A stretch of 64,000 nucleotides of DNA, taken from Eledone cirrhosa. Taxonomy: Eukaryota. Under the pieces are notes generated by a model that saw only the letters and a list, made by a program, of their open reading frames with translations, was not told the origin of the DNA and did no database searches. The translations under genes and the position numbers were made by a program. The stretch covers positions 306,032,001 to 306,096,000 of the forward strand of contig OZ024742.1 in NCBI GenBank assembly GCA_964016885.1, in the 5' to 3' direction. This document shows positions 4,191-56,654 of the stretch, piece after piece (within the stretch, counting starts at the first letter, position 1; every line of letters begins with the position of its first letter).

Positions 4191-4383
4191 GGTGTGTGTA
4201 CGAGACATGTAGAAGGTTAAAAAAATACCATCAATTGCTTTCTTACCACTCCCCAGTTCCTGGTTTATGGAAGAAAGATCAATATTTTTGCGGAAGTGAC
4301 CTGGTACTATTTTATTGTTTTGAAATAGTTTGGATAACAAACCAGGTTGTTTTTTTTGTTTTTTCATGTTTGGATAGCAAATC

Positions 4384-4477
4384 TTTACGGGGTCGATAAA
4401 ATAAAGTACCAGTAATGTACTGGATAATTGCTGGCCTTGTGCCTAAAGTAGAAACAATTATTATTATTATTATTATT
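4384..4477 (+). mobile_element. SINE 3' half with (ATT)n tail
   Basis: TTTACGGGGTCGATAAAATAAAGTACCAGT...TTGCTGGCCTTGTGCCTAAAGTAGAAACA(ATT)n, repeated at about 10240, 36240, 55700 and 56280. Confidence 0.85.
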
Positions 4478-4750
4478 GTTCTTTGAGTCTCAGTCATTGA
4501 TGTTAGTTAACTGGAAAGTTTGTTGAAATGAATGTCAAGCCACTACCTGCAGCCTCAGATATTCAGGACGTATCGGAGGGTTCTTGCTGTTCCCAGCAAG
4601 CATGCCTTTTGAAGCGTTCCAAAAAGCGTGGCGGGGCCAATTTTCTTTAACCATCCCTGGAAACTTTTTGAGATAGTACCTAGTGCGCCTATGACAATCG
4701 GGACCACTTTGACTTCAGGGCAGTTCCAAATCCTTTTTACCTCCCACTTT
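4478..4750 (-). mobile_element. 5'-truncated R4/Dong-like (RLE-type) non-LTR retrotransposon 3' end
   Basis: Minus-strand translation EVKRIWNCPEVKVVPIVIGALGTISKSFQGWLKKIG...LQKACLLGTARTLRYVLNI* (stop 4555-4557), typical of the R4/Dong C-terminus; (TAA)n on both sides. Confidence 0.8.
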
Positions 4751-4991
4751 ATTATTATTATTATTATTATTATTGAATGCCATGGTTGACGGAGGCTCGG
4801 CTCTGTAAGGTATAGTAATTTTTAACCGCTATAACAATTGTAAATTGTTTAAAAGTTTAACCAAATTGTAGATAAAAACACCCTCCTCCTCGTGAGAGGG
4901 GTCTTTCTGTCCGTTATTTGGCCCTTCGGGATTATATAAACGCTTATTGGGGTTTTGTACCCAATATTCATTTTAAACCCCCCAAAAAAAC

Positions 4992-7051
4992 ATGGCTACA
5001 AAAAAGAATTTTCACAAGTCACTCCCACTCATTCCGTCTTCTTCTTCCTCAATCTTCACTACATCAGAGAGAAGATTGTCTCTCTCCTTCCCTTCTCTAA
5101 ATGTGTCTCCCTCCCTCCCTTCTCTTTTGCAAGCGACGCCAGTAAAGAAAAATAGTTTCCAAAATCACGTGCAAAACGTGGAACATTTCTCCACGACGAC
5201 GACAACGACGAAAAAGGTGTGCGGTAAATACGAAAACCAATTTCATTCGTCTGACGTCATGAATAATAGCAGTAGCAGCCGTAATAACAGCAGCAGCAGC
5301 AACAGTGACAAGGAAAACAACAGTAGCAGCCGCAACATCATCAGCAGCAGCATAAACAACAACAACCACAGCAACAGCGGCGGCGGCAGTCGTAGTACCA
5401 GCAGCAACAACAAAAGTAACAGCAGCTCTGACGACGACAACAACAACAACAACAGCAGCAAAGAAAAACCAATCTCATTTGCAGGTATCGCAAAGAACCT
5501 GGAAACCATCCTCATAACAAATGAGGAATTACAGGAAGCAAAGAAGATGCAAGGCAGGCGAAACATTTTTCGAAACCCAACAGCACTGTACAGTCACGTA
5601 CCGTACAGTAAACACAAAATACCGTAGGGTTGAAAGGGCCACAGAGACTCAAATACAAAAAGCCTTAGGGTCTGTGTGGCAGCGGAAAACGCATATCACC
5701 CGAGGCAAGAAATATGCCACCGTGGACGTGCTTTTTGCCATACCCCAGGAGGCAAAGGCTCAATCCTTAGTGACCCTAAGAAGCGAGGAAATGGTGTTGG
5801 TGCCCTCCTATTGCTGACACAAAATTGTGAGGGTCAAACTGACCCCCCCCCCCCCGGGAATGCCCCTTCTTGTCTGGCCGCGTTTGTCCTCGTCGAATCG
5901 AGGACAAAACAACTGTACTGCAAGTACAGAAAAAAGTACGAGATGATTGGGTCGGCACCTCCATTGAGATGTTAATCCAAACCAACCAGGAGTGCATCGA
6001 AGATATCCCGGATGTGATAGACTTCGATAACGGCACTCAACTGCCCATAAGTGTTGAGGGCAGACGCCCGAAATGATTTCGCTGTGGATCGAAGACTCAC
6101 CTCGGGGCCTTCTGCAATGAGAACACCCTGGAGAAATCCCCCTCCTTCCGAAACCGGCTCCACTGCTACCAGCAGCAGGATAGGCGGCAAGCAGGAAGGA
6201 TAGGTCCCTGGCACTCATACCCACGCCACGGAAATCAAGAACAGCAGTAGCAGTGTAAGTATTAACAACAACAACAGTAATACCAACTGCAGCTGCAACA
6301 GAGACTCCACTGCAAACATCACCAACGACAACAAGTAAAAGAATAGGGCTGGTACCCCTCCCCGACCTCACAGAATCGAACATGGAGTGTGAGGTGGGAG
6401 AGGGATGGCAAAAGGTCGCAAGAAGGCACAAACAGGAAGCAGCGCATCATCGCCTTCGAAAAGGAAGGGAAGAAACGAAATAAGAGTAAAGGCTACTGCA
6501 AAAAGTTTACAGCAGCAACACCACCAACACCATCACCACCCACACTAGCATCACCATCACCACCGGCGGCAACCCCACCGCCAACAACAACAACACCGCC
6601 AACAACAATAACACAAGCACCAACATCGCAAACACAACAAAACACACACATCCAACAACAATGACAAGAAAATAGCAGAACCTCACCGCACCCCCAAAAA
6701 AACAAATGCACAGCAATAAATACACACAACAAGAAAATAATGACTTACATAATTGAACACACAGACATTTCACAGCACGAATACATAATACCAGCACCAA
6801 TCAAAACACCAACGAACATAAGACTGGTAAGAATAGCACAGAAACAATACACAAACATTAAAACGAAATTCCCCAACGCAGTTGGTGATTTCAGAGACCT
6901 AGGAGGGACACTCAACCGGAGATTATATTCAGATATACTCACAGAAGAGCCGACGACCAGCCGAAGGGGCGATTCAACGGTCCCTTCACCAGACGATCAA
7001 ATAAAAAGGGATGGTGAAACTATCCTTCCCCTGAGAGAAGAAGTAAGGTAA
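4992..7051 (+). pseudogene. Tx1 ORF1 (RRM-like + decayed CCHC knuckle + P/T-rich linker), frameshifted
   Basis: Fragments CTVTYRTVNTKYRRVERATETQIQKALG, IPDVID...VEGRRPK*FRCGSKTHLGAFC and C-terminal LPLREEVR are homologous to the 496-aa ORF at 42865. Confidence 0.85.
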
Positions 7052-7085
7052 GTGGTCTTTCCTATCTTTTCCACACCATTTCAAC

Positions 7086-9898
7086 ATGACCTCACTCAGA
7101 ATAGGCAGCATAAATGCGCGTGGCTTGGGGTCGTTATGGAAGCAGGGCTACCTGCTCAACGACCTCAGGTCACTAAACATAGATGTAGTGGCCATCAGCG
7201 AGACCAGAATCTCCGAAGCACGAGCCTTCGCACCGATCTTCGGCGGCTACGATGTGTACGCATCTCCCAGCCGTCCGGGATAGGGGGAAGGAGTTGCTGT
7301 GCTTTTTCGGAGAGGTTTGGATCTCGCCATACGGGCCATCTTCCTGGACCCAGAAGGTAAGTTGGTGGTGCTGGACGTGACCAGCGGAGAAGGGCAAGCT
7401 TTCAGGCTAGTGGCCGTCTATGCCCCGACAGGAGCAGGGCGGCCTGATTTCTTCCGGTGTCTGGAGACCTTTCTAGGAAACCCGCTCTTTAGTGTTAGTG
7501 GGTGACTGGAACGGGATCTTAGATGCACGCTGGGACTGTGTGGGATTAGCGGATAGGGGAGGAGGGTGCAAGAGCCTGACCAACCTGCTCAGGCGTTTTG
7601 AACTGTCTGAGAGGTACCGATTGGAATTCCCGAATGTGCCAATGTGGACTTGGACAAATCGTATAGGGTCATCCAGATCATATCTAGATAGAGTATTTTG
7701 TAAGAAAATAGATAGGTCTAGCATAGGCTGTCCACAATTCAAGATAGTCAGCTACACGGACCACACATTCGTGATCTGTGTGCTTGACTTAGATAGGCTT
7801 CATAGACGAGGACCCAGCTACAGGGAGCTAAACGCGTCCTTACCAGCGCGCAGGGCCTACAGAGACCAGATTAGCGAACTAGTTAAGCGGGCGTTGACGG
7901 GGGCCATCGTCAACAACAAGTGGTGGTTTGCTCTGAAAAGAGCGATTAGAATAGAGTCCATTAGGTTTATTAAGGCTTTAGCAATAGAGAAAAATAGAGC
8001 AGAGTGAGAACTAGTTAGAAAATTAGACGAGGCGCTTAGCAAAGGTATCGCGACCGACGTACTTGCGGCGAAATTGGCCCTCGACAAATTCTTCAATGCA
8101 AAGCACGAAGGCTGCATTGTCAGAGCTAGGGTGCGTGCTCTAAGACACGAGGGGACGAAAGCCGTTCAATGGGCCCGAGTGGCGGAGGCGAGTCGTGACA
8201 CAGAGCCACGATCCGGTCTTTGGGGGACCACGACGGGCGCATGCTACTCGATCTCGGGCAAATGTGTGAAGTTTTCCAGCGACACTTAGCCCAGCTGTTC
8301 GGGGGCAGCGGCAGGCTGAATCGAGGGATGGACTTTAGTGTCTACCTCGACGGACTGCCGCGGCTCTCGGCTACTGAGGCGGAGTGTTGCGAAAAGCCGT
8401 TAACAGCCGCTGAAATAAGGGAGGCATTGACTGGCTGCATAAGGGGTAAATCGCCTGATTTGGATGGTCTGCCCTATGAACTTTACGTACAGGTGCCAGA
8501 TTGTTCGGAGACCTCTTGGCGGAGGTCTACTGCAACTGGCAACAGAACGGGAGAATTCCGAGCTCTGTGAGCCGAGGAGCTGTGGCGCTACTGAGAAAGG
8601 ATCCGAACAAGGGGGATAACATAGATAATTTCAGGCCCATAACTCTGGTAAACGCAGAGTTCAAGATTTTGGCCAAGGTGCTAGCAAAGAGGTTGGCGCT
8701 TGTCGTTGGTGGTCTGGTGGGAGAGGCGCCATTCCCGACAGATCCATCCAGGACAACCTGATGTGATACATCGTAGAGAGGGTAGCTAGGGAACCTGGCA
8801 CGCGTGGGTCCTTCATCAATTTTGATCAGTCGAAAGCTTTCGATAGGGTAGACCATCGTTACCTAGCGGCAGTCCTGAAGGCGGCTGGCTTTGGGCCCGT
8901 CTTCAGAAGCTGTAGCGCTGCCATGCACATCTGCTCTGTGGTGAGAGTGAACGGTCACCTTTCGGAACCGTTCAACATCATGCGCTCTGTCCGCCAAGGA
9001 TGTCCCTTCCCGTCCCTCTTGTACGTATTGACTCTCGAGCCAATACTGCACAAACTGCAGACGTTGAGGAGGGTCCCGTCCGAACTAGGATGCGTAAGAT
9101 CCGTGTCAGCATATGCGGACGATGTCACCGTATTGGTGTCGAACGCCAAACAGATCGAGGCGATCGGCACTACACTAAGAGAATACGAAGCGGTGACAGG
9201 AGCAATGATCAACCTGGAAAAGTCAGTGGGCCTGCAGCTCGGCACCTGGAGAGGCAGGTCCATGCCGTCCAACAGCGTCGTCGGGCGCTGGACGGACAGA
9301 CCAGTTAAATTGCTAGGGGTCTGTTTCGGTCCGAACCTCCAGACGGACAAAAACTGGGACGAGCTGACGAGCAGGGTGGCTTCTCTCACCCAGAAATGGG
9401 CGGAGAGGAAGCTATCCCTGAAAGGTCGAGCGGAGGTGACTAACGCGTACATCGCGTCCGTCATCTACTACCGCCTGACCGTCTTACCTTATCCTAAGCC
9501 CCGCCTGAAACCGTCCTGCACGCACTCGTCCAGTGTCCGAGCATTGCTGACTTGTGGGTTTATGTCGAAGACCTGCTGTCACGTGTAGGACAGATCCAAC
9601 TATCAGCTGAGTCCATCGTGAGGATTGCCCCGCCCTCTTCCTTTAGCCGGGAAGGGCAGGCAGTTTTTATCTGTCTGGTGACCATGGCGAAAGAGATTGT
9701 ATGGTGGACACGTTTGAAAGGGCTGAAGACGAGCACTTACCTCTTCGGTGATGCCCTGATTAACTTTTTCAAATTTCATTTGAAAGGAAAATCAGGGTAG
9801 AGAGGGAAGTGCTCCCTTCCCAGCATTTTGTTGAAAGATGGGTGAGAGAAGCAAGTATGGCCAGAGTGAATGGGCCTACTCTGAGTATGTGTCTGTAA
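7086..9898 (+). pseudogene. Tx1 ORF2 (AP endonuclease + reverse transcriptase), disrupted, with an internal deletion of about 580 bp at ~9507
   Basis: SINARG, DVVAISETR, VGDWN, SYLDR, YTDH, NFRPITL, SVRQGCP and YADD motifs; multiple stops and frameshifts. Confidence 0.93.
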
Positions 9899-10174
9899 AT
9901 TAAAGGTGGAAAACTGGGAGAGGGCATTTGGCCTGGTGGTCAGAGTCACTGTGGCCTTTTAATGGGCTTTCCCACAAATGTCCCTCGGAAGTCTCCCCCC
10001 TATTGGGGAATTTTTCATTGTTGTTTTTTATTACATCCTCTGTTTTTTTTTTAACGCAGAAATGCCCATTTGTACCGTCCTGTATTGTCCTGTAGTGTCC
10101 TTAATGTCTACTTTATGTAACCCCTTGTGGTTAATAAAGAAAGCATTATTATTATTATTATGACTATTATTATT

Positions 10175-36510: not shown

Positions 36511-37474
36511 TGTATGTATTTATCTCTCTACATTCTATTTATCTATCTCTATATATATGAGGAAATTCAGCATATTTAAATATATTGACATCCAAGAACA
36601 CAAATATGCATATACATATATAAGGCTAACTTTTATATATAGACCAATGGTGTTTGCATACAGATTTTTCCTGATATTGATGAGAGAAACAAAAATTTCT
36701 CCTTGTCTTACGGCGAAATCTGACACTATATTTCATCCCGTGTATTTAAAGTGCTATTAAGTATCATGGATACCGTGAATAATGAAATCTAGAGCGCAAA
36801 TGTCAATGGAAAATGATCGAGCAACCTTAATCTATTATATATTTTAGAGCAAAGATGTTGTTGATCTATAATATCTATGAGGAAAACCCATGAACCACTC
36901 AGAATTAATTTACTTCTAATTTCTTATGCAATACAGCAGGATATTAATCTCGTCGTCGGCCACGAAAGATTTGGTAGGAATGACTGGTAGCATGTCCGAA
37001 GCATGCTGTGCATAACCGTTTTAGTGTATATTTACTAATGTAGAACCTCCAAATATCTTAAATTTTGTATGTAGTCATTCCGTTTTAGGGTACATATGTG
37101 ATTTCTAAACCCAGATTCTCTCCCATTAAAACTAAAGAACAAAGATATTCCGATTATTTTTGGTAATGATAATACACGTTTAATTAATTAAAGTTGTGTG
37201 ATAGAGTAGAAATATAGAAAAATATTGTGTTGTACAGGTTGGTCCGAAAGACTTGTCACCCCCTACCAAAAGGTAATTAGAAACAGTTTATGTTCCCGTC
37301 GCAGTATCGTCCTCCTCGGAGGAGTTGGTTTGCCGAATCTGGCAGTGAAGTCATGTCGCACCGCCTCCATGCTCTTGCCACAATGCACACGATCATGTGT
37401 CCATACACTTACAAGCAGCCTCTCTGCCAAACTGTAGGAGCTATGAAATAGAAAATTATATTATTATTATTATT

Positions 37475-40400
37475 ATGGAAGCAGAGTCGCCTGCTCAACG
37501 ACCTCCGGTCGCTGGAAATGGATGTGTTTGCCGTAAGCGAGACCAGAATTTCCGACACGCGCACACTAGCCCCCATTTTCGACGACTATCAGATCTTCGC
37601 ATGTTAGCAGGCCGGGATTGGGGGTGGGTGGCAGTGGTGTTTAGGAAAGGACTGGATCTCGAGGTAAAGTCGATCTTCCGGGACCCGGACGGTAAGTTGG
37701 TAGTCTTGGATGTGAGCAGTAGCAAAGGTGGTGCCTTTAGACTGCTGGCCGTCTACGCCCCTACAGGGGGCGGACGACCTGACTTTTTTAGGCGCCTGGA
37801 GACCTTTCTGGGTACGTCTCGCCCTTTACTGTTAGCGGGGAACTGGAATGGCATCTTAGACGCACGCTGGGATTGTGTGGTAGTAGACGATAGGAGCGGG
37901 GCGTGCAAAAGCCTCAAGCACCTACTCAGCCAGTTCCAACTGTCTGACAGGTATCGACTAGATTTCCCCAATGTGCCAGTATGGAGATGGACCAACCGAA
38001 TGGGATCATCTAGATCGTATATAGACAGGATCTTCATTAGGAAAATAGATAGAAATAGTGTGGGCTGTCCACTTTTTCAAACGGTCGCCTAATCAGATCA
38101 CAAATTTGTGATCTGTACGGTCGACCTAAATAAAACGCGTAGGTTAGGACCGGGTTACTGGAAGCTGAACATGCCATTTCCGGCACGTAAGGCTTACAGG
38201 GACCGAGTCAACAATTTAGTTAAGCAAAAGTTGACAGGGGGGATCATCAACAACAGATGGTGGGTGGCTCTCAAAAGAGAGATTAGAGTAACTTCGATAG
38301 AATTCAGCAAAGAACTAGCGTTAGAGAAAAATAGAAAGGAGGGGGAGCTGGTAGATAAGTTAGACGAGGCTATTTGTAGTGGCATTGCAACTGACGTGCT
38401 AGCGGCGAGAATGGCATTAGACCATTTCTTCAATGCCAAACACGAAGGTTGCATTGTCAGAGCTAAGGCGCGTGCGCGTAGAAACGAGGGAACTAAAGCT
38501 GTTCGATGGGCCCGCGTGGCGGAGGCGCAGCGTGGTAATAAAACCACAATTCGGTCTTTGGCGGAAGGAGACGGACACGAGATAAGCGATTCCAAGCGGA
38601 TGTGTGAGGCCTTTCGCCAGCACTTTGCTCGGTTGTTCAGAGAGAGTGGCGAGTCAGAGACAGTAGCGGATTTCAGTCCCTACCTTGACGGCTTGCCGCG
38701 CATCTCGACGGTCGACGCTGAGCGCTGCGAAAGGGCGATTACTTCACCGAAATTCAGAACGCCCTTGTCGGCTGCATGAGGCGCAAGTCACCCGGTTTGG
38801 ATGGCCTGCCCCACGAGCTTTACGTAAATATGCCAGACTTGTTCTCCGAACTCCTCCAAGCACTCTACTGCAACTGGCAGCAGAATGGGAGTATTCCCAG
38901 TTCTGTGAGCAGGGGAGTGGTGACGCTGATAAGGAAAGACGAGAACAAGAGGGATACATTAGACAACTTCAGGCCCATAACTCTGCTCAACACGGAGTTT
39001 AAGATTTTGCCCAAGGTGTTAGCAAAGAGATTGGCGCTTGTCGTCGAGGATTTGGTTGGGGAGGCGCAAATTTGCGCAATCCCAGCCAGGTCCATACACG
39101 ACAATCTCCACCTCATGCGATACACCATAGAGAGGGTAGGGTGTAAACCTGGCTTCGGTGGGGCACTGATCAATTGAGATCAATCGAAAGCATTCGATAG
39201 CGTCGACCATCGGTATCTGGAGTTTGTCCTCAGAGCAGCTGGCTTCGGCCCTGTCTTTAGAAGCTGGATCGTTGCAATGCACAGCGACACATGCTCGGTG
39301 GTCAAGGTTAATGGCCACCTCTCGGAACCATTTCGGATCTCCCGATCGGTCCGTCAAGGGTGCCCTCTCTCTTCCCTTCTGTACGTATTGACTCTCGAGC
39401 CTTTACTGGGGAAGCTGGAGCTGTTGCAGGGCATCCCGCTCGAACCGGGACGTGGAAAGGCGGTGTTGGCTTGTGCGGACGACATCACCGTGATGGTGTC
39501 GAACACCTCAGAAATCGAGGTGGTCGGCACCTTATTGAAGGGATATGAAAGGTTGACAGGAGCCAAACTTAACCCGGAAAAGTCGGTGGGCTTGCAGCTC
39601 GAAACCTGGAGAGGCAAGCCCATGCCGTCCAACAGCGTCGTCGGGCGCTGGACGGACGGACCGGTAAAGTTTCTCGGGGTTTGGTTCGGACCAGACCTCC
39701 AGGTGGAAAAGAATTGGGACGAGGTAACGAGCAGAGTAGCCAGTCTCACCCAAAAATGGGCTGGGAGGAAGCTATCACTGAAAGGTCGCGCGGAGGTGGC
39801 GAATGCGTACATCGCGTCCGTCATCTACTACCGTTTGACCGTCGTGCCTTGCCCCCGTCCGCGCCTCGTCAAGCTGGAATGGCTCCTCTTCAAATTCTTG
39901 TGGAGGGGACAAGTTCCGTAGTGAGGCGGTCCATCTGCTGCCAGCACCCTCTACGCGGAGGGCTGGGCATGCCGTGGCTAATGATGCGCAGACATGCGTT
40001 GAGGCTGCGACATTTCAAGATATTCTGCCTCAACGGTGAACAGATGTGGTCACCGTTTATCAGACGGGCCTTTCCGCAGCTCATCTCTTTGACTGAGCTG
40101 CAGTCCTGGGTCAAGAAGAGACCGAGACTGGGTGACTGGCACCTGGAATGTTGCCAGGCACTGACTGCCCTCTACCAAGCGGGCAATGCGATCAGTGGAA
40201 CTTCCACTCTCGAGTTCTATAGAGGATTAGTGGTGGGCAAGTGCGATGACGCACTCGGAGAAGCTTTGGGCCTCGACGAAGTCGAACTGACCAGTCTGTA
40301 CCGGAGGACTTTTGAGCCGGGGACGATGGACAATTTCCAGAAATCCCTCGCTTGGCAGTGCTACTGGGGGGAACTGCCGGTTCGGGATAAACTCTCCAGG

Positions 40401-41130
40401 CACGGAAGTGCTGTCAGACGGACCTGCCCAAGAAACCGTTCTGCACGCACTTGTCCAATGTCCGTGCATTACTGAATTGTGGAGTTATGTCGAACCGCTA
40501 CTGTCGTGTGTGGAACGAATCCGGCTATAGGCCGAGTCCATAGTGAAGATCGAGCCACCGCTTCCTTAGGTCAGGAAGAGCAGGAAATGTTCCTCTGTCT
40601 GGTGGCAGTTGCGAAAGAGATTATATGGTGGACCAGGTTGATAGGACTAAAGACAGACACTTTTCTCTTCGGCCAATCCCTCATCAACTTCTTCAAGTTT
40701 CACCTGGAAAGGAAGGTGAGGGTGGAGAGAGAAGTGATGCCCCCCCCCCCCCCAGTACATTTTCTAAAAGGTGGGTGAATGTGGCGAGAATGGCTCGTGT
40801 GAATGGGCCTACTCTGACCATGCGCCTATAGGCTGGCTAACTTGAGGAGAGGGGTGCTCTCGCTGGGTGCCCTAGAAGCGCAGGGTGGTACAGAAATGGT
40901 GGGGTACCTGAAGCACCCCAGGATCGTACACCCCCCTATCGGGGTATTTATTTTGTTATATTTATGCATAGTTTATTTTATATTTTTATATTTTATATTG
41001 TTAAATTAGTCTTGCCATTGTGCACTTTTACTCCATCTTATTGTAAACCCCCACTGTTCCTGTCTTTGTATTGTCCCCTACATGTTGGCCCTGGTGGCTA
41101 ATAAATGAAATCATTATTATTATTATTATT
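37475..41130 (+). mobile_element. Tx1-clade element, divergent family B, 5'-truncated near the start of ORF2
   Basis: APE/RT/zf remnants 37475-40831 (LAGNWN, PGYWKLN, KSPGLDG, SVRQGCPLS, CADD, GGLG); distinct 3'UTR; AATAAA at 41100-41105; (ATT)6 tail. Confidence 0.93.
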
Positions 41131-42107
41131 CCAACTCTTCCTCGACGGTGATCAGGTGTGGTCGCAATTTGCTGGACGCGTCTTTCCCCCAAGCTCGTTT
41201 CCTTGACGGAGCTGCAGTCCTGGGTCAAGCGAAGACCGAGAGGGAGCGCTTGGAGACTGGAATGTCTTCAAGCGTTCACAGCCCTCGACCAATCGGGCAA
41301 TGTGATCGGTGGAAACTCCACCTTGGCGTTCTATAGAGGATTAGTGGAAGGTAAGAGCGACGACGTACTTGGGGAAACTCTAGGCGTCGACGAAAATCAA
41401 CTAGCCAATCTCTTCGGAAGAATTTTCGGGCCGGGGCCTATGGACAACTTCCAGAAATCCCTGGCCTGGCAGTGCTACCGAGGAGCTTTGCCAGTTCGGG
41501 ATAAACTCTACAGGCATGGAGGTGCCGTCATCCTGGCATGTCCCAGATGCGCGCAGTGCGACGAAACCGTCCTGCACGCACTCGTCCAGTGTCCGAGCAT
41601 TGCTGACTTGTGGGTTTATGTCGAACACCTGCTGTCGCGTGTGGGACGGATCCAGCTATCAGCTGAGTCCATCGTGAGGATTGCCCCGCCCCCTTCCTTT
41701 AGCCGGGAAGGGCAGGCAGTTTTTATCTGTCTGGTGGCCATGGCGAAAGAGATAGTATGGTGGACACGGTTGAAAGGGCTGAAGACGAGCACTTACCTCT
41801 TCGGTGATGCCCTGTTTAACTTTTTCAAATTTCATTTGAAAAGGAAAATCAGGGTAGAGAGGGAAGTGCTCTCTTCCCAGCATTTTGTTGAAAGATGGGT
41901 GAGAGAAGCAAGTATGGCTCGAATGAATGGGCCTTCTCTGAGTATGTGTCTGTAAATTAACGGTGGGGAATTTTTTCATTGTTCTATTATTACATCCTCT
42001 GTTTCTTGTTTTTTTTACACGCAGAAATGCCCATTTGTGCGGCCCTGTATTGTCCTGTACTGTCCTTAATGTCTACTTTATGTAAACCCTTGTGGTTAAT
42101 AAAGAAA

Positions 42108-42148
<41 letters not shown>
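41131..42148 (+). mobile_element. Tx1 family A, 5'-truncated ~1-kb copy (zf-RVT C-terminus + 3'UTR with ~95-bp deletion)
   Basis: Matches from 46988 onward; CPRCAQCDETVLHALVQC; (ATT)13 tail at 42110-42148. Confidence 0.93.
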
Positions 42149-42357
42149 GGCGACCTACGTAGTAAATCGTATCATCGTGAGCTCCGCAAAGGTTTGTTAT
42201 TTCCGTTTGTTAAAAATTGCCGTTTATGGAAAATTTTTATTGTTAACCATATATAAGCGCACATACATTGTTTTCCGAAAAGGACACCCAAAAAGATTGG
42301 GGCCTTGTGCCCAAAATTTTAACTTTTATTATTATCAAAAAATTTCTTTGTAAAAAA

Positions 42358-44355
42358 ATGGCTAATTCACCTCTGCAGCAAGCAGCTGAAAGCCTTTCTC
42401 ACAAATTAACACCTCACACCGACACCACCATTGTAAATGTTACTACGTTGCCAACACTAAAAAAAATATAAGCAATAGCAATATTTTAAATTTGTCTCAG
42501 GCAGACATTCATTTCCGGCCATTACCAATGACTGCAGGTGTTAAAGCCTCCACCACCACCACCACCGCGACAAGCCCCACCCCCACCACCACCGCGACAA
42601 CAGAAACAAAAGAAGAAAAAAATAAATTAACTCGTGATGTCGAAATGAAATCAAGCAAAATGGACTCTTCCCCACCAAAGACGACTGACGTCACCACCAC
42701 CACAACTGAAACTAAAATTAATATTAACACAAATAACGATAGCAACAACAACAACAATGACATTATAAAAACCACCCTCAGTTTCGCCAGAGTAGCAAAA
42801 CAGTTCGAAGCATTTACGGTAACTCAGGAGGATTTAGAAAATGCCAAACAAATGGTAAAGAAAGATGGGTACAGGGTCAGCCTCACCCCCCCCCCCACCT
42901 AATAAAATGGACCATCGGCACCTATGCACCGTGTCGTATCGAACAATAAATGTAAAATCGCGCCGAGTGGAACGGGCATCCGAGTCCCAAATCCAAAAAG
43001 CTTTGGGACATGTGTGGGCAAGAAAAACCCACATCAGACGTGGGCAGAAGTATGGAACTGTGGACGTGTTCTTTGAAACACCAGAGGAGGCTAGAGAACA
43101 CTCCATGGCCCCATTAAGATGTGACGACTTCACATTTGTCCCAAGCTATTGTGGCCAGAGACTCGTAAAGATCAGGGTGACCCACGTTCCACCGGCCATC
43201 GAAATTCCCTGGCTAATAGCGGCCGTCCTCGCTGGCATCGAAGCCAACACAAAAATAATAGCAATAGCAAAAGAAAAGCAGGAGTACTGGTCCGGATCTG
43301 GGATGGAGCTCCTGATCCAAGCGGACCAAAAAAGCATTGAGAAGATCCCAGAGGTAATAGACCTCACTGACGACAGCCACCTCACGGTAATTGTCGAGGG
43401 CAGAAGACCTAGGTGTGTCGTTTGTGGTGAAGGAACCCACCTAAGGGTTTTCTGCCCTCAGGCTAAAAGTTTGAGGCCACCTCTCCTACCCACCCCAGTG
43501 ATACAACCATCAACACCACCAGTAGCAGAGATGGCAGCAACAACTGTAGCAGCAACAACAGAAGCAACTATAACAGCAACAACCCCAGCAACAGTAGCAA
43601 AACCAACACCACTACCACCACCAGCAAAACCAACACCACCACCACCCAACGCTTCAGAACTAGCACCAGCGCCTACACCATCCACCACACCACAACCAAA
43701 ACTAACGGCTGTGGAGGATTTTCCACTCCCCGGCCTATCACAACTGGAGACAGATTGTGACGACGAGGAGTGGGAAACGATATCCGGAAAAAAAAAAAGA
43801 AACCAAAAAAGAAAAAATTCTCTTCCTTCCCCCTCCAAAAACAAAATACAGAGGGAAACAAATAAACTAAGAAACAAAAAAGTTAGGACAGATATGCCAC
43901 CATCCACACCAGCATCACCAACCCCATCAACCCAAACACCAACACCATCACCATCATTAACTCCAACACCACCATCACCTACACCACAAAAGTCACCAAA
44001 ATGCGAAATAGAAACAAACCCACAACGAACGCAAACAAAACAAAACAACCAAAACGATACACACTACACAGCATTAAATTTGAACAACAAGCAATTATTA
44101 CACTACATCCAACACAACACCAGCATCACAGAAAAAGACTACACAACAACCCCAAAATTCACACCACATCCACACATACAAATCACTCGCATCACACAGA
44201 AAACGTACATGACACTAAAACAAAAATTCCCCAAAGACATCGGAGACTTCCGACAAGCACTCTCCAGGAGGATTTATAAGGACATCCTTCCTGAGGAGGC
44301 CACAAGCAGTGAAAAGGATGGAAAAGCCGTCCTTCCCCTACGAGAAGTAAGGTAA
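42358..44355 (+). CDS. Tx1 ORF1 nucleic-acid-binding protein (RRM-like domain, CCHC zinc knuckle, P/T-rich linker); frame breaks at ~42449 and in the C11 run at ~42886-42896
   Basis: MANSPL start; CVVCGEGTHLRVFC = CX2CX4HX4C; 496-aa open segment 42865-44355. Confidence 0.85.
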
Positions 44356-44389
44356 GTGGTCTTTCCCATCTTTTCCACTCCTTTTCAAC

Positions 44390-47300
44390 ATGACCTCACT
44401 CAGAATAGGCAGCATAAATGCGCGTGGCTTGGGGTCGTCATGGAAGCAGGGCCACCTGCTCAACGACCTCAGGTCACTAAACATAGATGTAGTAGCCATC
44501 AGCGAGACCAGAATCTCCGAAGCACAGGCTTTCGCACCGATCTTCGGCGGCTACGATGTGTACGCATCTCCCAGCCGTCCGGGATCGGGGGGAGGAGTTG
44601 CTGTGCTTTTTCGGAGAGGTTTGCATCTTGCCATACGGGCCATCTTCCTGGACCCAGAAGGTAAGTTGGTGGTGCTGGACGTGACCAGCGGAGACGGGCA
44701 AGCTTTCAGGTTAGTGGCCGTCTATGCCCCGACAGGAACAGGGCGGCCTGATTTCTTCCGGCGTCTGGAGACCTTTCTTGGAGCGTCCCGCTCTTTAGTG
44801 TTAGTGGGCGACTGGAACGGGATCTTAGATGCACGCTGGGATTGTGTGGGATTAGTGGATAGGGAAGGAGGGTGCAAGAGTCTCACCAACCTGCTCAGAC
44901 GTTTTGAACTGTCTGACAGGTACCGAATGGATTTCCCGAATTTACCAATGTGGACTTGGACAAATCGCATAGGGTCATCCAGATCATATCTAGATAGAGT
45001 ATTTTGTAGGGAAATAGATAGTTCTAGCATAGGCTGTCCACAATTCAAGATAGTCAGCTACACGGACCACAAATTCGTGATCTGTGTGCTTGACTTAGAT
45101 AGGCTTCATAGACGAGGACCCGGCTACTGGAAGCTAAACGCGTCCTTACCAGCGCGCAAGGCCTACAGAGACCGGATTAGCGAACTAGTTAAGCGGGCGT
45201 TGACGGGGGCCATCGTCAACAACAAGTGGTGGTTTGCTCTGAAAAGAGCAATTAGAATAGAGTCCATTAGGTTTAGTAAGACATTAGCAATAGAGAAAAA
45301 TAGAGCAGAGGGAGAATTAGTTAGAAAATTAGATGAGGCGCTTAGCAAAGGCATCGCGACCGACGTACTTGCGGCGAAATTGGCCCTTGACCAATTCTTC
45401 AATGCAAAGCACGAAGGCTGCGTTGTCAGAGCTAGGGTGCGTGCTCTCAGACACGAGGGGACGAAAGCCGTTCAATGGGCCCGAGTGGCGGAGGCGCGTC
45501 GTGGCAACAAAGCCACGATCCGGTCTTTGGTGGACCACGACGGGCGCATGCTACTCGATCCAGGGCAAATGTGTGAAGCTTTTCAGCGACACTTCGCTCA
45601 ACTGTTCGGGGGCAGTGGCGGGCCGGATCGAGGGATGGACTTTAGTGTCTACCTCGACGGACTGCGGCGGCTTTCGGCCACTGAGCCGGAGTGTTGCGAA
45701 AAGCCGATAACAACCGCTGAAGTACGGGATGCAATGACTAGTTGCACAAGGGGTAAATCGCCTGGTTTGGATGGTCTGCCCTATCAACTTTACGTACAAA
45801 TGCCAAACTTGTTCGGAGGCCTCTTGGCGGACGTCTACTGCAACTGGCAACAGAACGGGAGAATTCCCAGCTCTGTGAGCCGAGGAGCGGTGGCGCTGCT
45901 GAGAAAGGATCCGAATAAGGGGGATAAGATAGATAATTTTAGGCCCATAACTATGCTAAACACAGAGTTCAAGATTTTGGCCAAGGTGCTAGCAAAGAGG
46001 TTGGCGCTTGTCGTTGGTGGTCTGGTGGGAGAGGCACAGACATGCGCCATTCCCGACAGATCCATCCACGACAACCTCCACCTCATGCGATACATCGTAG
46101 AGAGGGTAACTAGGGAACCTGGCACGGGTGGTTCTTTGATCAATTTAGATCAGTCGAAAGCCTTCGATAGGGTCGACCATCGTTACCTAACGGCAGTCCT
46201 GAGGGCGGCTGGCTTTGGGCCCGTCTTCAGAGGCTGGATCGCTGCCATGCACAGCGACATCTGCTCTGTAGTGAGAGTGAACGGTCACCTTTCGGAACCG
46301 TTCAACATCATGCGCTCGGTCCGCCAAGGATGTCCCCTCTCGTCCCTATTGTACGTATTGACTCTCGAGCCATTACTGCACAAACTGGAGACGTTGAGGG
46401 GGGGTCCCGCGCGAACTAGGATGCGGAAGATCCGTGTCAGCATATGCCGACGATGTCACCGTAGTGGTGTCGAACGCCAAACACATCGAAGCGATCGGCA
46501 CTACACTAAGAGAATACGAAGCGGTGACAGGAGCAATGATCAACCAGGAAAAGTCAGTGGGCCTGCAGCTCGGCACCTGGAGAGGCAGGTCCATGCCGTC
46601 CAACAGCGTCGTCGGGCGCTGGACGGACGGACCGGTTAAATTGCTAGGGATCGGGTTCGGTCCAAACCTCCAGACAGACAAAAACTGGGACGAGGTGACG
46701 AGCAGGGTGGCTTCCCTCACCCAGAAATGGGCCGATAGGAAGCTATCCCTGAAAGGTCGAGCGGAGGTGGCGAATGCGTACATCGCATCCGTCATCTACT
46801 ACCGCGTGACCATCGTACCTTGTCCTAAGCCCCGCCTGACTGCGCTGGAGCGTTTACTCTTTCGCTTCTTGTGGAAGGGACGCGCTCCGATGGTAAGGCG
46901 GTCCATCTGCTGTCAACACCCGCTACGTGGAGGGCTGGGCATGCCGTGGCTGATGATGCGCAGACACGCGCTCAGGCTACGACATCTCCACCTCTTCCTC
47001 GACGGTGATCAGGTGTGGTCGCCGTTTGCAAGACGCGTTTTCCCCCAGCTCGTCTCCTTGACGGAGCTGCAGTCCTGGGTCAAGCGAAGACCGAGAGGGA
47101 GCGCTTGGAGACTGGAATGTCTTCAGGCGCTCACAGCCCTCGACCAATCGGGCAATGTGATCGGTGGAAACTCCACCTTGGCGTTCTATAGGGGATTAGT
47201 GGAGGGGAAGAGCGACGACGTACTTGGAGAAACTCTAGGCGTCGACGAAAATCAACTAGCCAATCTCTTCGGAAGGACTTTCGGGCCGGGGCCTATGGAC

Positions 47301-47810
47301 AACTTCCAGAAATCCCTGGCCTGGCAGTGCTACCGAGGAGCTTTGCCAGTTCGGGATAAACTCTACAGGCATGGAGGTGCCGTCAAACGGGCATGTCCGA
47401 GATGCGCGCAGGGCGACGAAACCATCCTGCACGCACTCGTCCAGTGTCCGAGCATTGCTGACTTGTGGGTTTATGTCGAACACCTGCTGTCACGTGTAGG
47501 ACGGATCCAGCTATCAGCTGAGTCCATCGTGAGGATTGCCCCGCCCCCTTCCTTTAGCCTGGAAGGGCAGGCAGTTTTTATCTGTCTGGTGGCCATGGCG
47601 AAAGAGATAGTATGGTGGACACGTTTGAAAGGGCTGAAGACGAGCACTTACCTCTTCGGTGATGCCCTGATTAACTTTTTCAAATTTCATTTGAAAAGGA
47701 AAATCAGGGTAGAGAGGGGAGTGCTCTCTTCCCAGCATTTTGTTGAAAGATGGGTGAGAGAAGCAAGTATGGCCTGAATGAATGGGCCTTCTCTGAGTAT
47801 GTGTCTGTAA
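44390..47810 (+). CDS. Tx1 ORF2: AP endonuclease, reverse transcriptase, zf-RVT; one frameshift in a G run (~46400) and a late CGA>TGA stop (47775)
   Basis: 749-aa and 447-aa ORFs with VGDWN, TDH, PGYWKLN, KSPGLDG, LDQSKAFDRVDH, RQGCPLS, YADD, GGLG, CPRC...H...C. Confidence 0.95.
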
Positions 47811-48052
47811 ATTAAAGGTGGAAAACTGGGAGAGGGCTCTTGCCCTGGTGGTCATGGCCACTGTGGTCTTCTAATGGGCTTTCTCCACAAATGTCCCTTG
47901 GAAGTCTCCCCCCTATTGGGGAATTTTTCTTTGTTATTTTATTTCAACCTCTGTTTTTTTACACGCAGAAATGCCCATTTGTACCGTCCTGTATTGTCCT
48001 GTACTGTCCTTAATGTCTACTTTATGTGAACCCTTGTGGTTAATAAAGAAAA

Positions 48053-48089
<37 letters not shown>

Positions 48090-48297
48090 GGCGACCTAGG
48101 TAGTAAATCGTATCATCGTGAGATCCGCAAAGATTTGTTATTTCCGTTTGTTAAAAATTGCCATTTATGGACATTTTTTTTGTGAACCATATATAAGCGC
48201 ACATACATTGTTTTCCGAAAAGGATACCCAAAAAGATTGGGGCCTTGTGCCCCAAATTTTAACTTTTATTATTATCAAAAAATTTCTTTGTAAAAAA

Positions 48298-50298
48298 ATG
48301 GCTAATTCACCTCTGCACCAAGCAGCTGAAAGCCTTTCTCACAAATTAACACCTCACACCGACACCACCATTGTAAATTTTACTACGTTTGCCAACACTA
48401 AAAAAAATATAAGCAATAGCAATATTTTAAATTTGTCTCAGGCAGACATTCATTTCCCGCCATTACCAATGACTGCAGGTGTTAAAGCCTCTACCACCAC
48501 CACCACCACCGCGACAACCCCCACCCCCACCACCACCGCGACAACAGAAACAAAAGAAGAAAAAAATAAATTAACTCGTGATGTCGAAATGAAATCAAGC
48601 AAAATGGACTCTTCCCCACCAAAGACGACTGACGTCACCACCACCACAACTGAAACTAAAATTAATATTAACACAACTAACGATAGCAACAACAACAACA
48701 ATGACATTATAAAAACCATCCTCAGTTTCGCCAGAGTAGCAAAACAGTTCGAAGCATTTACGGTAACTCAGGAGGATTTAGAAAATGCCAAACAAATGGT
48801 AAAGAAAGATGGGTACAGGGTCAGCCTCACCCCCCCCCCCACCTAATAAAATGGAGCATCGGCGCCTATGCACCGTGTCGTATCGAACAATAAATGTAAA
48901 ATCGCGCCGAGTGGAACGGGCATCCGAGTCCCAAATCCAAAAAGCTTTGGGACATGTGTGGGCAAGAAAAACCCACATCAGACGTGGGCAGAAGTATGGA
49001 ACTGTGGACGTGTTCTTTGAAACACCAGAGGAGGCTAGAGAACACTCCATGGCCCCATTAAGATGTGACGACTTCACATTTGTCCCAAGCTATTGTGGCC
49101 AGAGACTCGTAAAGATCAGGGTGACACACGTTCCACCGGCCATCGAAATTCCCTGGCTAATAGCGGCCGTCCTCGCTGGCATCGAAGCCAACACAAAAAT
49201 AATAGCAATAGCAAAAGAAAAGCAGGAGAACTGGTCCGGATCTGGGATGGAGCTCCTGATCCAAGCGGACCAAAAAAGCATTGAGAAGATCCCAGAGGTA
49301 ATAGACCTCACTGACGACAGCCACCTCACGGTAATTGTCGAGGGCAGAAGACCTAGGTGTGTCGTTTGTGGTGAAGGAACCCACCTAAGGGCTTTCTGCC
49401 CTCAGGCTAAAAGGTTGAGGCCACCTCTCCTACCCACCCCAGTTACACAACCATCAACACCACCAGTAGCAGAGATGGCAGCAATAACTGTAGCAGCAAC
49501 AACAGAAGCAACTATAACAGCAACAACCCCAGCAACAGTAGCAAAACCAACACCACCACCACCACCAGCAAAACCAACACCACCACCACCCAACGCTTCA
49601 GAACTAGCACCAGCGCCTACACCATCCACCACGCCACAACCAAAACTAACGCCTGTGGAGAATTTTCCACTCCCCAGCCTATCACAACTGGAGACAGATT
49701 GTGACGACGAGGAGTGGGAAACGATATCCGGAAAAAAAAAAGAAACCAAAAAAGAAAAAATTCTCTTCCTTCCCCCTCCAAAAACAAAATACAGAGGGAA
49801 ACAAATAAACTAATAAACAAGAAAGTTAGGACAGATATGCCACCATCCACACCAGCATCACCAACCCCATCAACCCAAACACCAACACCATCAACATCAT
49901 TAACCCCAACACAACCATCACCTAGACCACAAAAGTCACCAAAATGCGAAACAGAAACAAACCCACAACAAACGCAAACAAAACAAAACAACCAAAACGA
50001 TACACACTACACAGCATTAAATTTGAACAACAAGCAATTATTACACTACATCCAACACAACACCAGCATCACAGAAAAAGACTACACAACAACCCCAAAA
50101 TTCACACCATATCCACACATACAAATCACTCGCATCACACAGAAAACGTACATGACACTAAAACAACAAATCCCCAAAGACATCGGAGATTTCCGACAAG
50201 CCCTCTCCAGGAGGATTTATAAGGACATCCTTCCTGAGGAGGCCACAAGCAGTGAAAAGGATGGAAAAACCGTCCTTCCCCTACGAGAAGTAAGGTAA
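48298..50298 (+). pseudogene. Tx1 ORF1, frame breaks at the C11 run (~48830-48840) and an A run (~49735)
   Basis: Homologous to 42358-44355. Confidence 0.88.
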
Positions 50299-50332
50299 GT
50301 GGTCTTTCCCATCTTTTCCACTCCTTTTCAAC

Positions 50333-53300
50333 ATGACCTCACTAAGAATAGGCAGCATAAATGCGCTTGGCTTGGGGTCGTCATGGAAGCAGGGCCACCT
50401 GCTCAACGACCTCAGGTCACTAAACATAGATGTAGTGGCCATCAGCGAGACCAGAATCTCCGAAGCACAGGCTTTCGCACCGATCTTCGGCGGCTACGAT
50501 GTGTACGCATCTCCCAGCCGTCCGGGATCGGGGGGAGGAGTTGCTGTGCTTTTTCGGAGAGGTTTGCATCTTGCCATACGGGCCATCTTCCTGGACCCAG
50601 AAGGTAAGTTGGTGGTGCTGGACGTGACCAGCGGAGAAGGGCAAGCTTTCAGGCTAGTGGCCGTCTATGCCCCGACAGGAGCAGGGCGGCCTGATTTCTT
50701 CCGGCGTCTGGAGACCTTTCTTGGAACGTCCCGCTCTTTAGTGTTAGTGGGCGACTGGAACGGGATCTTAGATGCACGCTGGGATTGTGTGGGATTAGTG
50801 GATAGGGAAGGAGGGTGCAAGAGTCTCACCAACCTGCTCAGACGTTTTGAACTGTCTGACAGGTACCGAATGGATTTCCCGAATGTACCAATGTGGATTT
50901 GGACAAATCGCATAGGGTCATCCAGATCATATCTAGATAGAGTATTTTGTAGGGAAATAGATAGGTCTAGCATAGGCTGTCCACAATTCAAGATAGTCAG
51001 CTACACGGACCACAAATTCGTGATCTGTATGCTTGACTTAGATAGGCTTCATAGACGAGGACCCGGCTACTGGAAGCTAAACGCGTCCTTACCAGCGCGC
51101 AAGGCCTACAGAGACCGGATTAGCGAACTAGTTAAGCGGGCGTTGACGGGGCCATCGTCAACAACAAGTGGTGGTTTGCTCTGAAAAGAGCAATTAGAAT
51201 AGAGTCCATTAGGTTTAGTAAGACTTTAGCAATAGAGAAAAATAGAGCAGAGGGAGAATAAGTTAGAAAATTAGATGAGGCGCTTAGCAAAGGCATCGCG
51301 ACCGACGTGCTTGCGGCGAAATTGGCCCTTGACTAATTCTTCAATGCAAAGCACGAAGGCTGCGTTGTCAGAGCTAGGGTGCGTGCTCTCAGACACGAGG
51401 GGACGAAAGCCGTTCAATGGGCCCGAGTGGCGGAGGCACGTCGTGGCAACAAAGCCACGATCCGGTCTTTGGTGGACCACGACGGGCGCATGCTACTCGA
51501 TCCCGGGCAAATGTGTGAAGCTTTTCAGCGACACTTCGCTCAACTGTTCGGGGGCAGTGGCGGGCCGGATCGAGGGATGGACTTTAGTGTCTACCTCGAC
51601 GGACTGCCGCGGCTTTCGGCCACTGAGGCGGAGTGTTGCGAAAAGCCGATAACAACCGCTGTAGTACGGGATGCAATGACTAGTTGCACAAGGGGTAAAT
51701 CGCCTGGTTTGGATGGTCTGCCCTATCAACTTTACGTACAAATGCCAGACTTGTTCGGAGGCCTCTTGGCGGACGTCTACTGCAACTGGCAATAGAACGG
51801 GAGAATTCCCAGCTCTGTGAGCCGAGGAGCGGTGGCGCTGCTGAGAAAGGATCCGAACAAGGGGGATAACATAGATAATTTCAGGCCCATAACTCTGCTA
51901 AACACAGAGTTCAAGATTTTGGCCAAGGTGCTAGAAAAGAGGTTGGCGCTTGTCGTTGGTGGTCTGGTGGGAGAGGCACAGACATGCGCCATTCCCGACA
52001 GATCCATCCACGACAACCTCCACCTCATGCGATACACCGTAGAGAGGGTAGCTAGGGAACCTGGCACGGGTGGGTCTTTGATCAATTTAGATCAGTCGAA
52101 AGCCTTCGATAGGGTCGACCATCGTTACCTAGCGGCAGTCCTGAGGGCGGCTGGCTTTGGGCCCGTCTTCAGAGGCTGGATCGCTGCCATGCACAGCGAC
52201 ATCTGCTCTGTAGTGAGAGTGAACGGTCACCTTTCGGAACCGTTCAACATCATGCGCTCGGTCCGCCAAGAATGTCCCCTCTCGTCCCTATTGTACGTAT
52301 TGACTCTCGAGCCAATACTGCACAAACTGGAGACGTTGAGGGGGGTCCCGCGCGAACTAGGATGCGGAAGATCCGTGTCAGCATATGCCGACGATGTCAC
52401 CGTAGTGGTGTCGAACGCCAAACACATCGAGGCGATCGGCACTACACTAAGAGAATACGAAGCGGTGACAGGAGCAATGATCAACCAGGAAAAGTCAGTG
52501 GGCCTGCAGCTCGGCACCTGGAGAGGCAGGTCCATGCCGTCCAACAGCGTCGTCGGGCGCTGGACGGACCGGTTAAATTGCTAGGGGTCTGGTTCGGTCC
52601 AGACCTCCAGACGGACAAAAACTGGGACGAGCTGACGAGCAGGGTGGCTTCTCTCACCCAGAAATGGGCCGATAGGAAGCTATCCCTGAAAGGTCGAGCG
52701 GAGGTGGCTAACGCGTACATCACGTCCGTCATCTACTACCGCCTGACCGTCGTACCTTGTCGTAAGCCCCGCCTGACTGCGCTGGAGCGTTTGCTCTTTC
52801 GCATCTTGTGGAAGGGACGCGCTCCGATGGTCAGGCGGTCCATCTGCTGTCAACACCCGCTACGTGGAGGGCTGGGCATGCCGTGGCTGATGATGCGCAG
52901 ACACGCGTTTAGGCTACGACATCTCCACCTCTTCCTCGACGGTGATCAGGTGTGGTCGCCGTTTGCTAGACACATTTTTCCCCAGCTCGTCTCCTTGACG
53001 GAGCTGCAGTCCTGAGTCAAGCGAAGACCGAGAGGGAGCGCTTGGAGACTGGAATGTCTTCAGGCGCTCACAGCCCTCGACCAATCGGGCAATGTGATCG
53101 GTGGAAACTCCACCTTGGCGTTCTATAAGGGATTAGTGGAGGGGAAGAGCGACGACGTACTTGGAGAAACTCTAGGCGTCGACGAAAATCAACTAGCCAA
53201 TCTCTTCGGAAGGACTTTCGGGCCGGGGCCTATGGACAACTTCCAGAAATCCCTGGCCTGGCAGTGCTACCGGGGTGCCATGCCAGTTCGGGATAAACTT

Positions 53301-53747
53301 TACAGGCATGGAGGTGCCGTCAGCCGCGCATGTGCGAGATGCGCACAGGGCGACGAAACCGTCCTGCACGCACTCGTCCACTGTCCGAGCATTGCTGACT
53401 TGTGGGTTTATGTCGAACACCTGCTGTCACGTGTAGGACGGATCCAGCTATCAGCTGAGTCCATCGTGAGGATTGCCCCGCCCCCTTCCTTTAGCAGGGA
53501 AGGGCAGGCAGTTTTTATCTATCTGGTGGCCATGGCGAAAGAGATAGTATGGTGGACACGTTTGAAAGGGCTGAAGACGAGCACTTACCTCTTCGGTGAT
53601 GCCCTGATTACCTTTTTCAAATTTCATCTGAAAAGGAAAATCAGGGTAGAGAGGGAAGTGCTCTCTTCCCAGCATTTTGTTGAAAGATGGGTGAGAGAAG
53701 CAAGTATGGCCCGAATGAATGGGCCTTCTCTGAGTATGTGTCTGTAA
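50333..53747 (+). pseudogene. Tx1 ORF2 with several stops and frameshifts
   Basis: Fragments of 283, 138, 255, 247 and 217 aa homologous to 44390-47810. Confidence 0.93.
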
Positions 53748-53991
53748 ATTAAAGGTGGAAAACTGGGAGAGGGCACTTGCCCTGGTGGTCAGGGCCACTG
53801 TGGTCTTTTAATGGGCTTTCTCCACAAATGTCCCTCGGAAGTCTCCCCCCTATTGGGGAATTTTTCTTTGTTATTTTTATTTCATCCTCTGTTTTTTTTA
53901 CACGCAGAAATGCCCATTTGCACCGTCCTGTATTGTCCTGTACTGTCCTTAATGTCTACTTTATGTAAACCCTTGTGGTTAATAAAGAAAA

Positions 53992-54052
<61 letters not shown>

Positions 54053-56425: not shown

Positions 56426-56654
56426 TTTTCTATGGCAAAGACAAAAACATCATCAGCAACAGCAGCAGCAACAGCAGCAGCAACAGCAGCAGCAGCAGCA
56501 GCAGTAGCAGCAACAACAACAACAACAACAACAATAACTCAGAGAGTAACACCAATATCGATGACAATAACAAATTTACCATGGCTACAGAAGATAACCA
56601 CAAGGACAAAAACAAAAATAGTAGCAATTATAATATCTGACGTAAGCTCAATGC

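Follow-up and report, generated by a model that had tools for sequence, protein, structure and literature searches.

Tx1-type LINEs occupy (ATT)n microsatellites of Eledone cirrhosa in one orientation and probably duplicate their target

A same-strand array in an ATT tract

The DNA considered here, 64,000 nucleotides of Eledone cirrhosa contig OZ024742.1 (assembly GCA_964016885.1, forward-strand positions 306,032,001 to 306,096,000; hereafter the window), carries at 37460-54049 an array of Tx1-type long interspersed nuclear elements (LINEs) set in ATT repeats. The original prediction, drawn from the letters of the window, described four same-strand elements from two families, here called A and B, with pure (ATT)6, (ATT)13 and (ATT)12 between them, a common 3' end AATAAA(T)GAAA(A/T)C|ATT, and two full-length copies, B1 and B2, that both begin ATT|GGCGACCTA; all of this is present in the DNA (Table 1, with coordinates of the whole window; all four elements lie on the plus strand). 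Reversed control patterns gave no match, placing the junction pattern far beyond chance.

The second open reading frame (ORF2) has an N-terminal apurinic/apyrimidinic endonuclease (APE; PF03372 in Pfam), a reverse transcriptase (RT; PF00078) and a C-terminal zinc-binding region (zf-RVT, PF13966). Its best match among solved structures is human L1 ORF2p (E=1e-51, versus 1e-20 for R2), and the stretch matching the L1 endonuclease hairpin loop aligns ungapped to L1 and is shorter than the LTX variant; judged from sequence, the element belongs to the L1 group of APE-RT retrotransposons lacking long terminal repeats. Two ORFs, with a CCHC knuckle in ORF1, are the hallmark of the Tx1 clade, and such a knuckle (CxxCxxxxHxxxxC) is found in ORF1 of B1; the putative membership of this clade rests on anatomy and behavior rather than on an RT tree, the 26 homologues including no named Tx1 reference and one cluster member labelled exonuclease III. 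Reading frames are broken in both B copies of the window; in other copies ORF1 frames of 665-723 aa and ORF2 frames of more than 1100 aa are free of stops (nine frames exceed 1140 codons among fetched loci of at least 6 kb), and the family is likely young because such long ORF2 frames persist. The hairpin predicted at the 3' end of B2 has similar predicted counterparts in A, B1, the truncated B copy and copy 1 (see below), and poly(A) after AATAAA is absent from every tail read.

Another element of the window, copy 1, had been assigned the same context as the array, which holds in part: ATT lies on both sides, but the 3' end reads GAAAGC and the 2.2-kb head is a different one (ATT|GAATGCC). 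Copy 1 matches B, at 93-95% identity, only downstream from the ORF1 end, and its upstream (ATT)8 also borders a truncated Dong-like copy on the minus strand. The two alternative heads, B and E, each comprising the 5' untranslated region (UTR) and ORF1, are attached to an identical ORF2 at a constant position close to the ORF1 end (head swaps at window 4775-7004 and at loci L072, L213, L215, L231, L242, L247, L249, L250 and L324), and in both the first base after ATT is G; this exchange resembles swaps known for L1. An Rfam search of the heads for ribozymes or known RNAs returned nothing for E and one weak microRNA match, far below threshold, for B. A check for expression listed no RNA data set containing the element. 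ORF1 of B and E gives a weak sub-threshold match to the methyl-CpG-binding domain (PF01429; window 42966-43190), probably by chance. Four B copies (L065, L229, L251, L283) carry a short interspersed nuclear element (SINE) at an identical ORF1 site, with a repeat of about 16 bp of element sequence visible beside it in L229 and L251; either a subfamily carries the SINE or the site is a hot spot.

Table 1. ATT-associated elements and tracts in the window
Feature	Position	Strand	Remark
ATT-ending SINE, 3' part, plus its (ATT)7	4381..4477	+	
Dong/R4-like element, 5'-truncated, 273 bp	4478..4750	-	between (ATT)7 and (ATT)8
(ATT)8	4751..4774	+	common to Dong-like 5' end and Tx1 head
Copy 1, E-type Tx1	4775..10144	+	differing 5'UTR/ORF1 head (4775-7004), B-like ORF2, ~580-bp internal deletion
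(ATT)5, copy 1 right flank	10145..10159	+	
(ATT)5, array left flank	37460..37474	+	from sequence
Family A Tx1-type LINE	37475..41112	+	5'-truncated within endonuclease region, frames broken; ~74% identical to B
(ATT)6 spacer	41113..41130	+	from sequence
B copy, 5'-truncated (3' 979 bp)	41131..42109	+	~95-bp internal deletion; from alignment
(ATT)13 spacer	42110..42148	+	from sequence
B1, full-length B copy, 5905 bp	42149..48053	+	ORF1 split over two frames, CCHC knuckle; ORF2 with one frameshift
B1 APE endonuclease domain	44390..45120	+	in-frame SINARG, SETR, VYAP, GDWN, YLDRV, TDH; closest solved structures are L1 endonucleases
B1 RT and C-terminal zinc-binding region	45920..47777	+	two frames
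(ATT)12 spacer	48054..48089	+	from sequence
B2, full-length B copy, 5903 bp	48090..53992	+	several stops/frameshifts; 97.6% identical to B1
B2 3'-terminal hairpin, 5-nt loop, AATAAA	53959..53992	+	predicted fold only
(ATT)19, array right flank	53993..54049	+	from sequence

Target, orientation and neighbors across the genome

Are these ATT borders peculiar to the array? In the 3.0-Gb genome an exact 19-base pattern for the B head finds 1772 copies, 1734 of them preceded by ATT in one phase and 1643 by (ATT)3; the E head follows (ATT)3 in 2416 copies, and at the 3' ends of B and E the next bases are ATTATT in 6365 cases and a base other than A in 144. The 38 B heads preceded by another triplet are spread over its three positions (11, 15 and 12 exceptions); among the 26 of them that were read, 25 lie at ATT tracts whose final unit is altered or shifted (one short and degenerate), one adjoins the 5' end of a Dong-like copy directly, and none has an (AAT)n tract, the opposite orientation, upstream. 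Eight of the non-A 3' exceptions were read as well: seven are at ATT-type tracts and one comes from a (TATC)n family. Four contig sets aligned to the 3' end matched it in pieces only; their loose ends showed ATT in a single set and were mixed or missing in the rest, and because the best-matching sets may derive from the sample behind the assembly, they are not counted as support. Elements have been classed as microsatellite-specific when a single repeat type occurs in over 20% of their flanks, 5' as well as 3' (methods text of PMC4494074), a share that ATT surpasses here on both sides. The ATT specificity and single orientation read from the window thus extend genome-wide, and the pattern named beforehand as contradicting them, mostly non-ATT 5' flanks, is not what the genome holds. 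The (TC)n and (TTC)n targets of Kibi and Koshi are not shared: the target is (ATT)n, and only two of 26 truncated copies lie at (TTC)n. Other trinucleotide repeats were available, because their runs are about as common as those of AAT: 790 kb of background (79 stretches of 10 kb at round coordinates chosen by the analyst, with clustered tracts) contain 28 AAT, 21 ATC, 17 ACC, 15 AAC, 12 ACT and 10 AAG runs of at least seven units.

Two further candidate regularities were rejected. The 3' ends followed by CTT do not form one inherited subfamily, the five that were read stemming from different lineages; and 5' flanks are not significantly purer than 3' flanks (interrupted in 8/100 versus 18/150, p=0.4). 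Many 5' ATT tracts are closely preceded by long (TTC)n runs (L062, L067, L093, L096, L226, L242); in L014 (= L093) such a run adjoins a full-length Dong-like copy and extends its GAA-rich 5' end, and the truncated Tx1 copies L134 and L137 directly abut such runs.

Truncated copies were reached through 62 listed internal junctions. A script excluded 30 of these, classing them as internal deletions or head swaps, and six were dropped by hand (duplications in L092 and L223, deletions in L212 and L276, SINE insertions in L251 and L283); four more (L038, L084, L127, L245) were re-scored by hand as ATT-like. After this curation 17 of 26 truncated copies begin at an ATT or ATT-like tract. Read by eye, five of 13 clear ATT truncation joints have at least three bases common to tract and element, and most joints fit a target strand ending in ATT. 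Truncation itself is not the rule: for 29 of 40 position-ordered 3' ends (such samples were drawn from a single contig, over its first 45 Mb) a 5' head, in one case rearranged, lies no farther than 6.3 kb away, and this retention of about 70% is high for a LINE.

That array members inserted independently, as originally proposed, is borne out: the array mixes families 26% apart, and neighbors are not closest relatives. Over the last kb B1 and B2 are 97.0% alike, yet they rank only 25th and 20th for each other among 72 partners, and in 16 aligned neighboring pairs the neighbor is the best match for one member only. Same-strand pairs at unit spacing occur five times among the first 100 listed heads, and longer arrays recur; some loci are local duplications (L092, L223, and the pair L059/L060, whose downstream flanks are identical), but these do not account for the arrays.

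The commonest neighbor in the tracts is an unrelated Dong/R4-like element on the opposite strand with a restriction-like endonuclease, a name suggested by its motifs and its target. RT, CCHC and PD..D endonuclease motifs were read; in Pfam an 823-aa C-terminal frame yields RT and no APE, and its best solved-structure matches are R2 proteins (E=1e-26). Two Dong-like families have (AAT)n at both ends, Dong-A alone shows 10034 exact 3' ends in the genome, and an ATT/AAT tract borders all 30 position-ordered Dong-like 3' ends and most listed 5' truncation points. With the copy from the window itself excluded, 29 full-length heads are preceded by 18 Dong-like 5' ends, one added in a later re-check, four Tx1 tails, two SINE tails and five others; downstream of 70 position-ordered tails are 33 Dong-like tails, 16 Tx1 heads, two SINEs and 19 others, two low-complexity matches having been moved by hand to the last class, and half of the first 30 tails run into opposite-strand Dong-like sequence. 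Among 30 background tracts of at least seven units, five bear Tx1 tails, seven or eight end at a Dong-like tail and three at a Tx1 head; 13 touch a Tx1-like or Dong-like element. Heads lie beside Dong-like 5' ends in excess (p=0.003 for 17/29, even with a background of 6/30). A preference of the elements for each other's tails, which the original description of head-to-tail stacking implied, is rejected: heads follow Tx1 tails in 4/29 cases versus 5/30 in the background (p=1.0). These adjacency tests are rough because the background is small and clustered.

Tx1-like and Dong-like sequences make up 4.1% and 1.8% of the 790 kb sampled, and an ATT-ending SINE another 2.5%; the 3' motif of this SINE resembles the Tx1 3' end and is followed by (ATT)n, making it a candidate passenger. 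A hint that the Dong-like element, too, duplicates its target comes from L143 (G000:C1:1.61 Mb), where a truncated copy is flanked on either side by an ATT tract with an AAT interruption. A further repeat starting CTCTACATTCC stands right of ATT tracts at L172, L177, L068, L244 and L278 and is probably an AAT-ending element; another recurrent repeat starts GTTGGTGAAGCC (L097, L232, L281). Tract sharing is underestimated because both were scored as "other".

Probable renewal of the target and its rivals

If every insertion cuts an ATT tract in two, why are the pieces so long? In 62 full-length elements the 5' and 3' flanks together average 27.6 units (29 for the seven without an adjoining library element), against a mean of 12.9 units in the 30 background tracts (length-weighted 14.3, maximum 22), a mean gain of some 13-15 units. 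Flanks shorter than six units are found on 2/62 5' sides and 7/62 3' sides, whereas cutting without gain predicts about 43%. One locus offers a direct view: at G000:C1:57.09-57.10 Mb three E copies of differing subfamilies, 95-98% alike over the last kb, are accompanied by a 42-bp tract, GTT(ATT)2ATC(GTT)2(ATT)8, which forms the native flank before the first copy and recurs directly after two 3' ends. The 3' ATT here thus appears as duplicated target rather than an element-borne tail, and the duplication would measure 42 bp. Two empty paralogues of the site have 8-9 pure units, compared with 8 and 10 when filled. The claim that insertion renews the target is supported by these flank sums and by the one triplicated tract. 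At the same locus (L326-L329) the three heads share a rare variant and the 3' ends differ, which suggests that new complementary DNAs (cDNAs) were joined by homology with a resident head, or that conversion followed later.

Several observations weigh against such renewal and against strict targeting. Of 80 other elements whose two ends were read, none showed a clear interruption common to both flanks, so that the direct evidence for duplication is one locus. A changed 5'-junction base was repeated downstream in none of 19 copies read at both ends (of 20 picked for such a base; the 19 are part of the 80); these bases are probably later mutations, because many such copies match B2 at only 90-93% identity. 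In pure tracts a duplication cannot be seen, and the interruptions are probably mostly of later origin. The 57.09-57.10 Mb locus could have arisen by tandem triplication and been changed afterwards by gene conversion; slippage or the insertions of neighbors can lengthen flanks; and the background, itself small (79 stretches of 10 kb) and with clustered tracts, may lack long tracts because they have already been hit. Nine of the 26 truncated copies are not at ATT, two of them at (TTC)n, and neither tail-to-Dong (p=0.08) nor tail-to-head (p=0.17) adjacency is significantly above background.

On balance we consider it probable that these Tx1-type LINEs insert almost only into (ATT)n, in one orientation, each likely duplicating about 40 bp of the repeat, so that Tx1, SINE and opposite-strand Dong-like insertions recur side by side. 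A scheme for the observed target, orientation, phase, exact junctions, long 5' and 3' tracts and mixed arrays would run as follows. The APE domain would nick the (AAT)n strand at a T/A step; the RNA, held by its 3' hairpin and probably aided by pairing of read-through (AUU)n, would prime at the nick; the (ATT)n strand would be nicked after ATT, about 13 units (~40 bp) downstream; the cDNA would join the second nick exactly if full-length and through 1-4 bases of microhomology if truncated; and fill-in would copy the stretch between the nicks, turning one tract into two. Array growth would thus reflect the multiplication of targets rather than any attraction of Tx1 to its own tail. What chooses the target? 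Not the terminal motif, because a sister family ~70-74% identical carries the same motif and, at 15 exact matches, (TATC)n after it (L346-L353), and one 28-base copy of it has TATC on both sides. The choice would fall to the endonuclease or to the read-through repeat, and the sequence alone is compatible with either; the endonuclease is favored as the main determinant, with pairing fixing the 3' joint, because of the SART1/TRAS1 endonuclease swaps described in the available text of PMC7265360.

A rather less probable scheme assigns the nicks to a loose, L1-like enzyme and lets read-through (AUU)n RNA paired with nicked (AAT)n set most of the target and orientation, perhaps with (AUU)n at the 5' end of the RNA as well. 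Pairing explains orientation equally well, and a 5' (AUU)n would account for the constancy of the 5' joint and for how many copies are full-length, 29 of 40 position-ordered 3' ends retaining their head; both inferred nicks fall at T/A steps, which the L1 endonuclease prefers, and the hairpin-loop stretch is of the short, ungapped L1 form. In the sister, ~72% identical and with the same terminal motif, as in the ATT family, each element sits in the repeat that ends it, and read-through pairing is described as raising the accuracy of R2Ol (in the text available of PMC6795142). Truncated cDNAs, however, carry no 5' repeat and 17 of 26 nonetheless end in ATT; at 57.09-57.10 Mb the bases after the 3' end are target and not RNA-copied ATT; and in SART1/TRAS1 specificity moves with the endonuclease (PMC7265360, as far as its text was available).

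Duplication by staggered nicks also has to be set against insertion with no net gain of repeat, in which very long tracts are needed, are split, and have their halves lengthened later by slippage. This is unlikely: the mean summed flank exceeds every one of the 30 background tracts, one interrupted 42-bp tract is triplicated, and the empty paralogous sites are half as long, even if the absence of clear shared interruptions in 80 elements and a free (ATT)25 tract at 60302 in the window fit it. Very improbable is the idea that ATT is part of the element only, a tail plus a 5' repeat carried to unrelated sites; full-length junctions by themselves cannot separate carried repeat from target, and nine of 26 truncated copies have no 5' ATT, but ATT borders two unrelated heads and the majority of truncated copies, heads sit in SINE tails and Dong-like flanks, and the empty paralogous sites are already ATT tracts. 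Tandem duplication or assembly error as the source of the arrays, which the 97.6% identity of B1 and B2 and the local duplications at L092, L223 and L059/L060 might recommend, is scarcely credible given an array of families 26% apart, neighbors that are not closest relatives, and the recurrence of unit-length same-strand pairs (five among the first 100 listed heads) and longer arrays.

Known systems and other features of the window

Tx1-group LINEs with APE that enter one microsatellite are known: Kibi in (TC)n, Koshi in (TTC)n and crocodilian Tx1 in (TTCC)n/(TTTC)n (PMC4494074, PMC3812793, in the text available). The (ATT)n target of the present element is unlisted for Tx1 in those texts, and compared with the Kibi/Koshi type it has thousands of copies, a head on ~70% of 3' ends, two alternative heads and a target also used by an element with a restriction-like endonuclease. 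Dong, of the R4 clade, is described as TAA-specific in silkworm, mosquito and snail (in the same text of PMC3812793); the partner found here has the same microsatellite, RT/CCHC/PD..D motifs and (AAT)n at both ends, and differs from the Tx1-type element in its restriction-like endonuclease and opposite strand, so that Dong is a likeness for the partner only. For Octopus vulgaris, Dong-R4 and L1-Tx1 are listed as active with no target given in the text available of PMC13282606, and for octopus more generally both are abundant or active, targets being absent from the text available (PMC13282606, PMC8967140).

Two site-specific LINEs in one simple repeat have a parallel in TRAS1 and SART1, which enter (TTAGG)n in opposite directions, TRAS1 nicking at a T/A step (PMC7265360, text in part). 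Both are R1-group APE elements of telomeric repeats and SART1 ends in poly(A), whereas here an APE and a restriction-like element meet in interstitial tracts and no poly(A) is seen. APE and restriction-like elements are also described on one target in Keno, of the Tx1 clade, and Utopia, converged on U2 small nuclear RNA genes (PMC4640811, text in part); these share a 3' flank and an orientation in a low-copy gene, unlike the opposite orientations and multiplying target here. No ATT- or AAT-targeting Tx1 was found in the literature searched, the available text of PMC3747384 likewise offering nothing on this target, and Repbase may already list the family; the element class and the sharing of one repeat by two elements are known, and what appears to be new is the (ATT)n target of Tx1.

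A bolder reading can be held only tentatively: that APE and restriction-like elements converged on opposite strands of one repeat, each duplicating roughly a whole tract, that this self-amplifying niche made a large share of the long ATT tracts, with ~6% of the DNA, and that close Tx1 relatives switched to (TATC)n. If true, the two families are a natural pair for tracing what sets microsatellite specificity. The choice of microsatellites by APE-type LINEs was called poorly understood in a 2013 review (PMC3812793, in its available text). Endonuclease and RNA pairing can be told apart by swaps, because the genome supplies thousands of exact junctions, stop-free ORF2 copies and a (TATC)n sister with the same 3' end. 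ATT microsatellites of this genome need reinterpretation, 13 of 30 random long tracts touching these elements, and builders of insertion tools could take an interest in an element that enters a common non-coding repeat with near-perfect precision and mostly at full length.

Besides the elements in Table 1, SINE copies lie in the window at 4381-4458, 10173-10316, 36125-36508 and 55624-56760. At 23642-29155 about 5.5 kb stand between 555-nt inverted repeats that are 99% complementary, with further inverted arms inside and a weak RT match on the minus strand (25818-26756); a Penelope-like or a fold-back element may lie here. Further inverted repeats, near-perfect and 230-350 nt long, and tandem pairs of 124-234 bp occupy 17139-18741 and 61189-63925.

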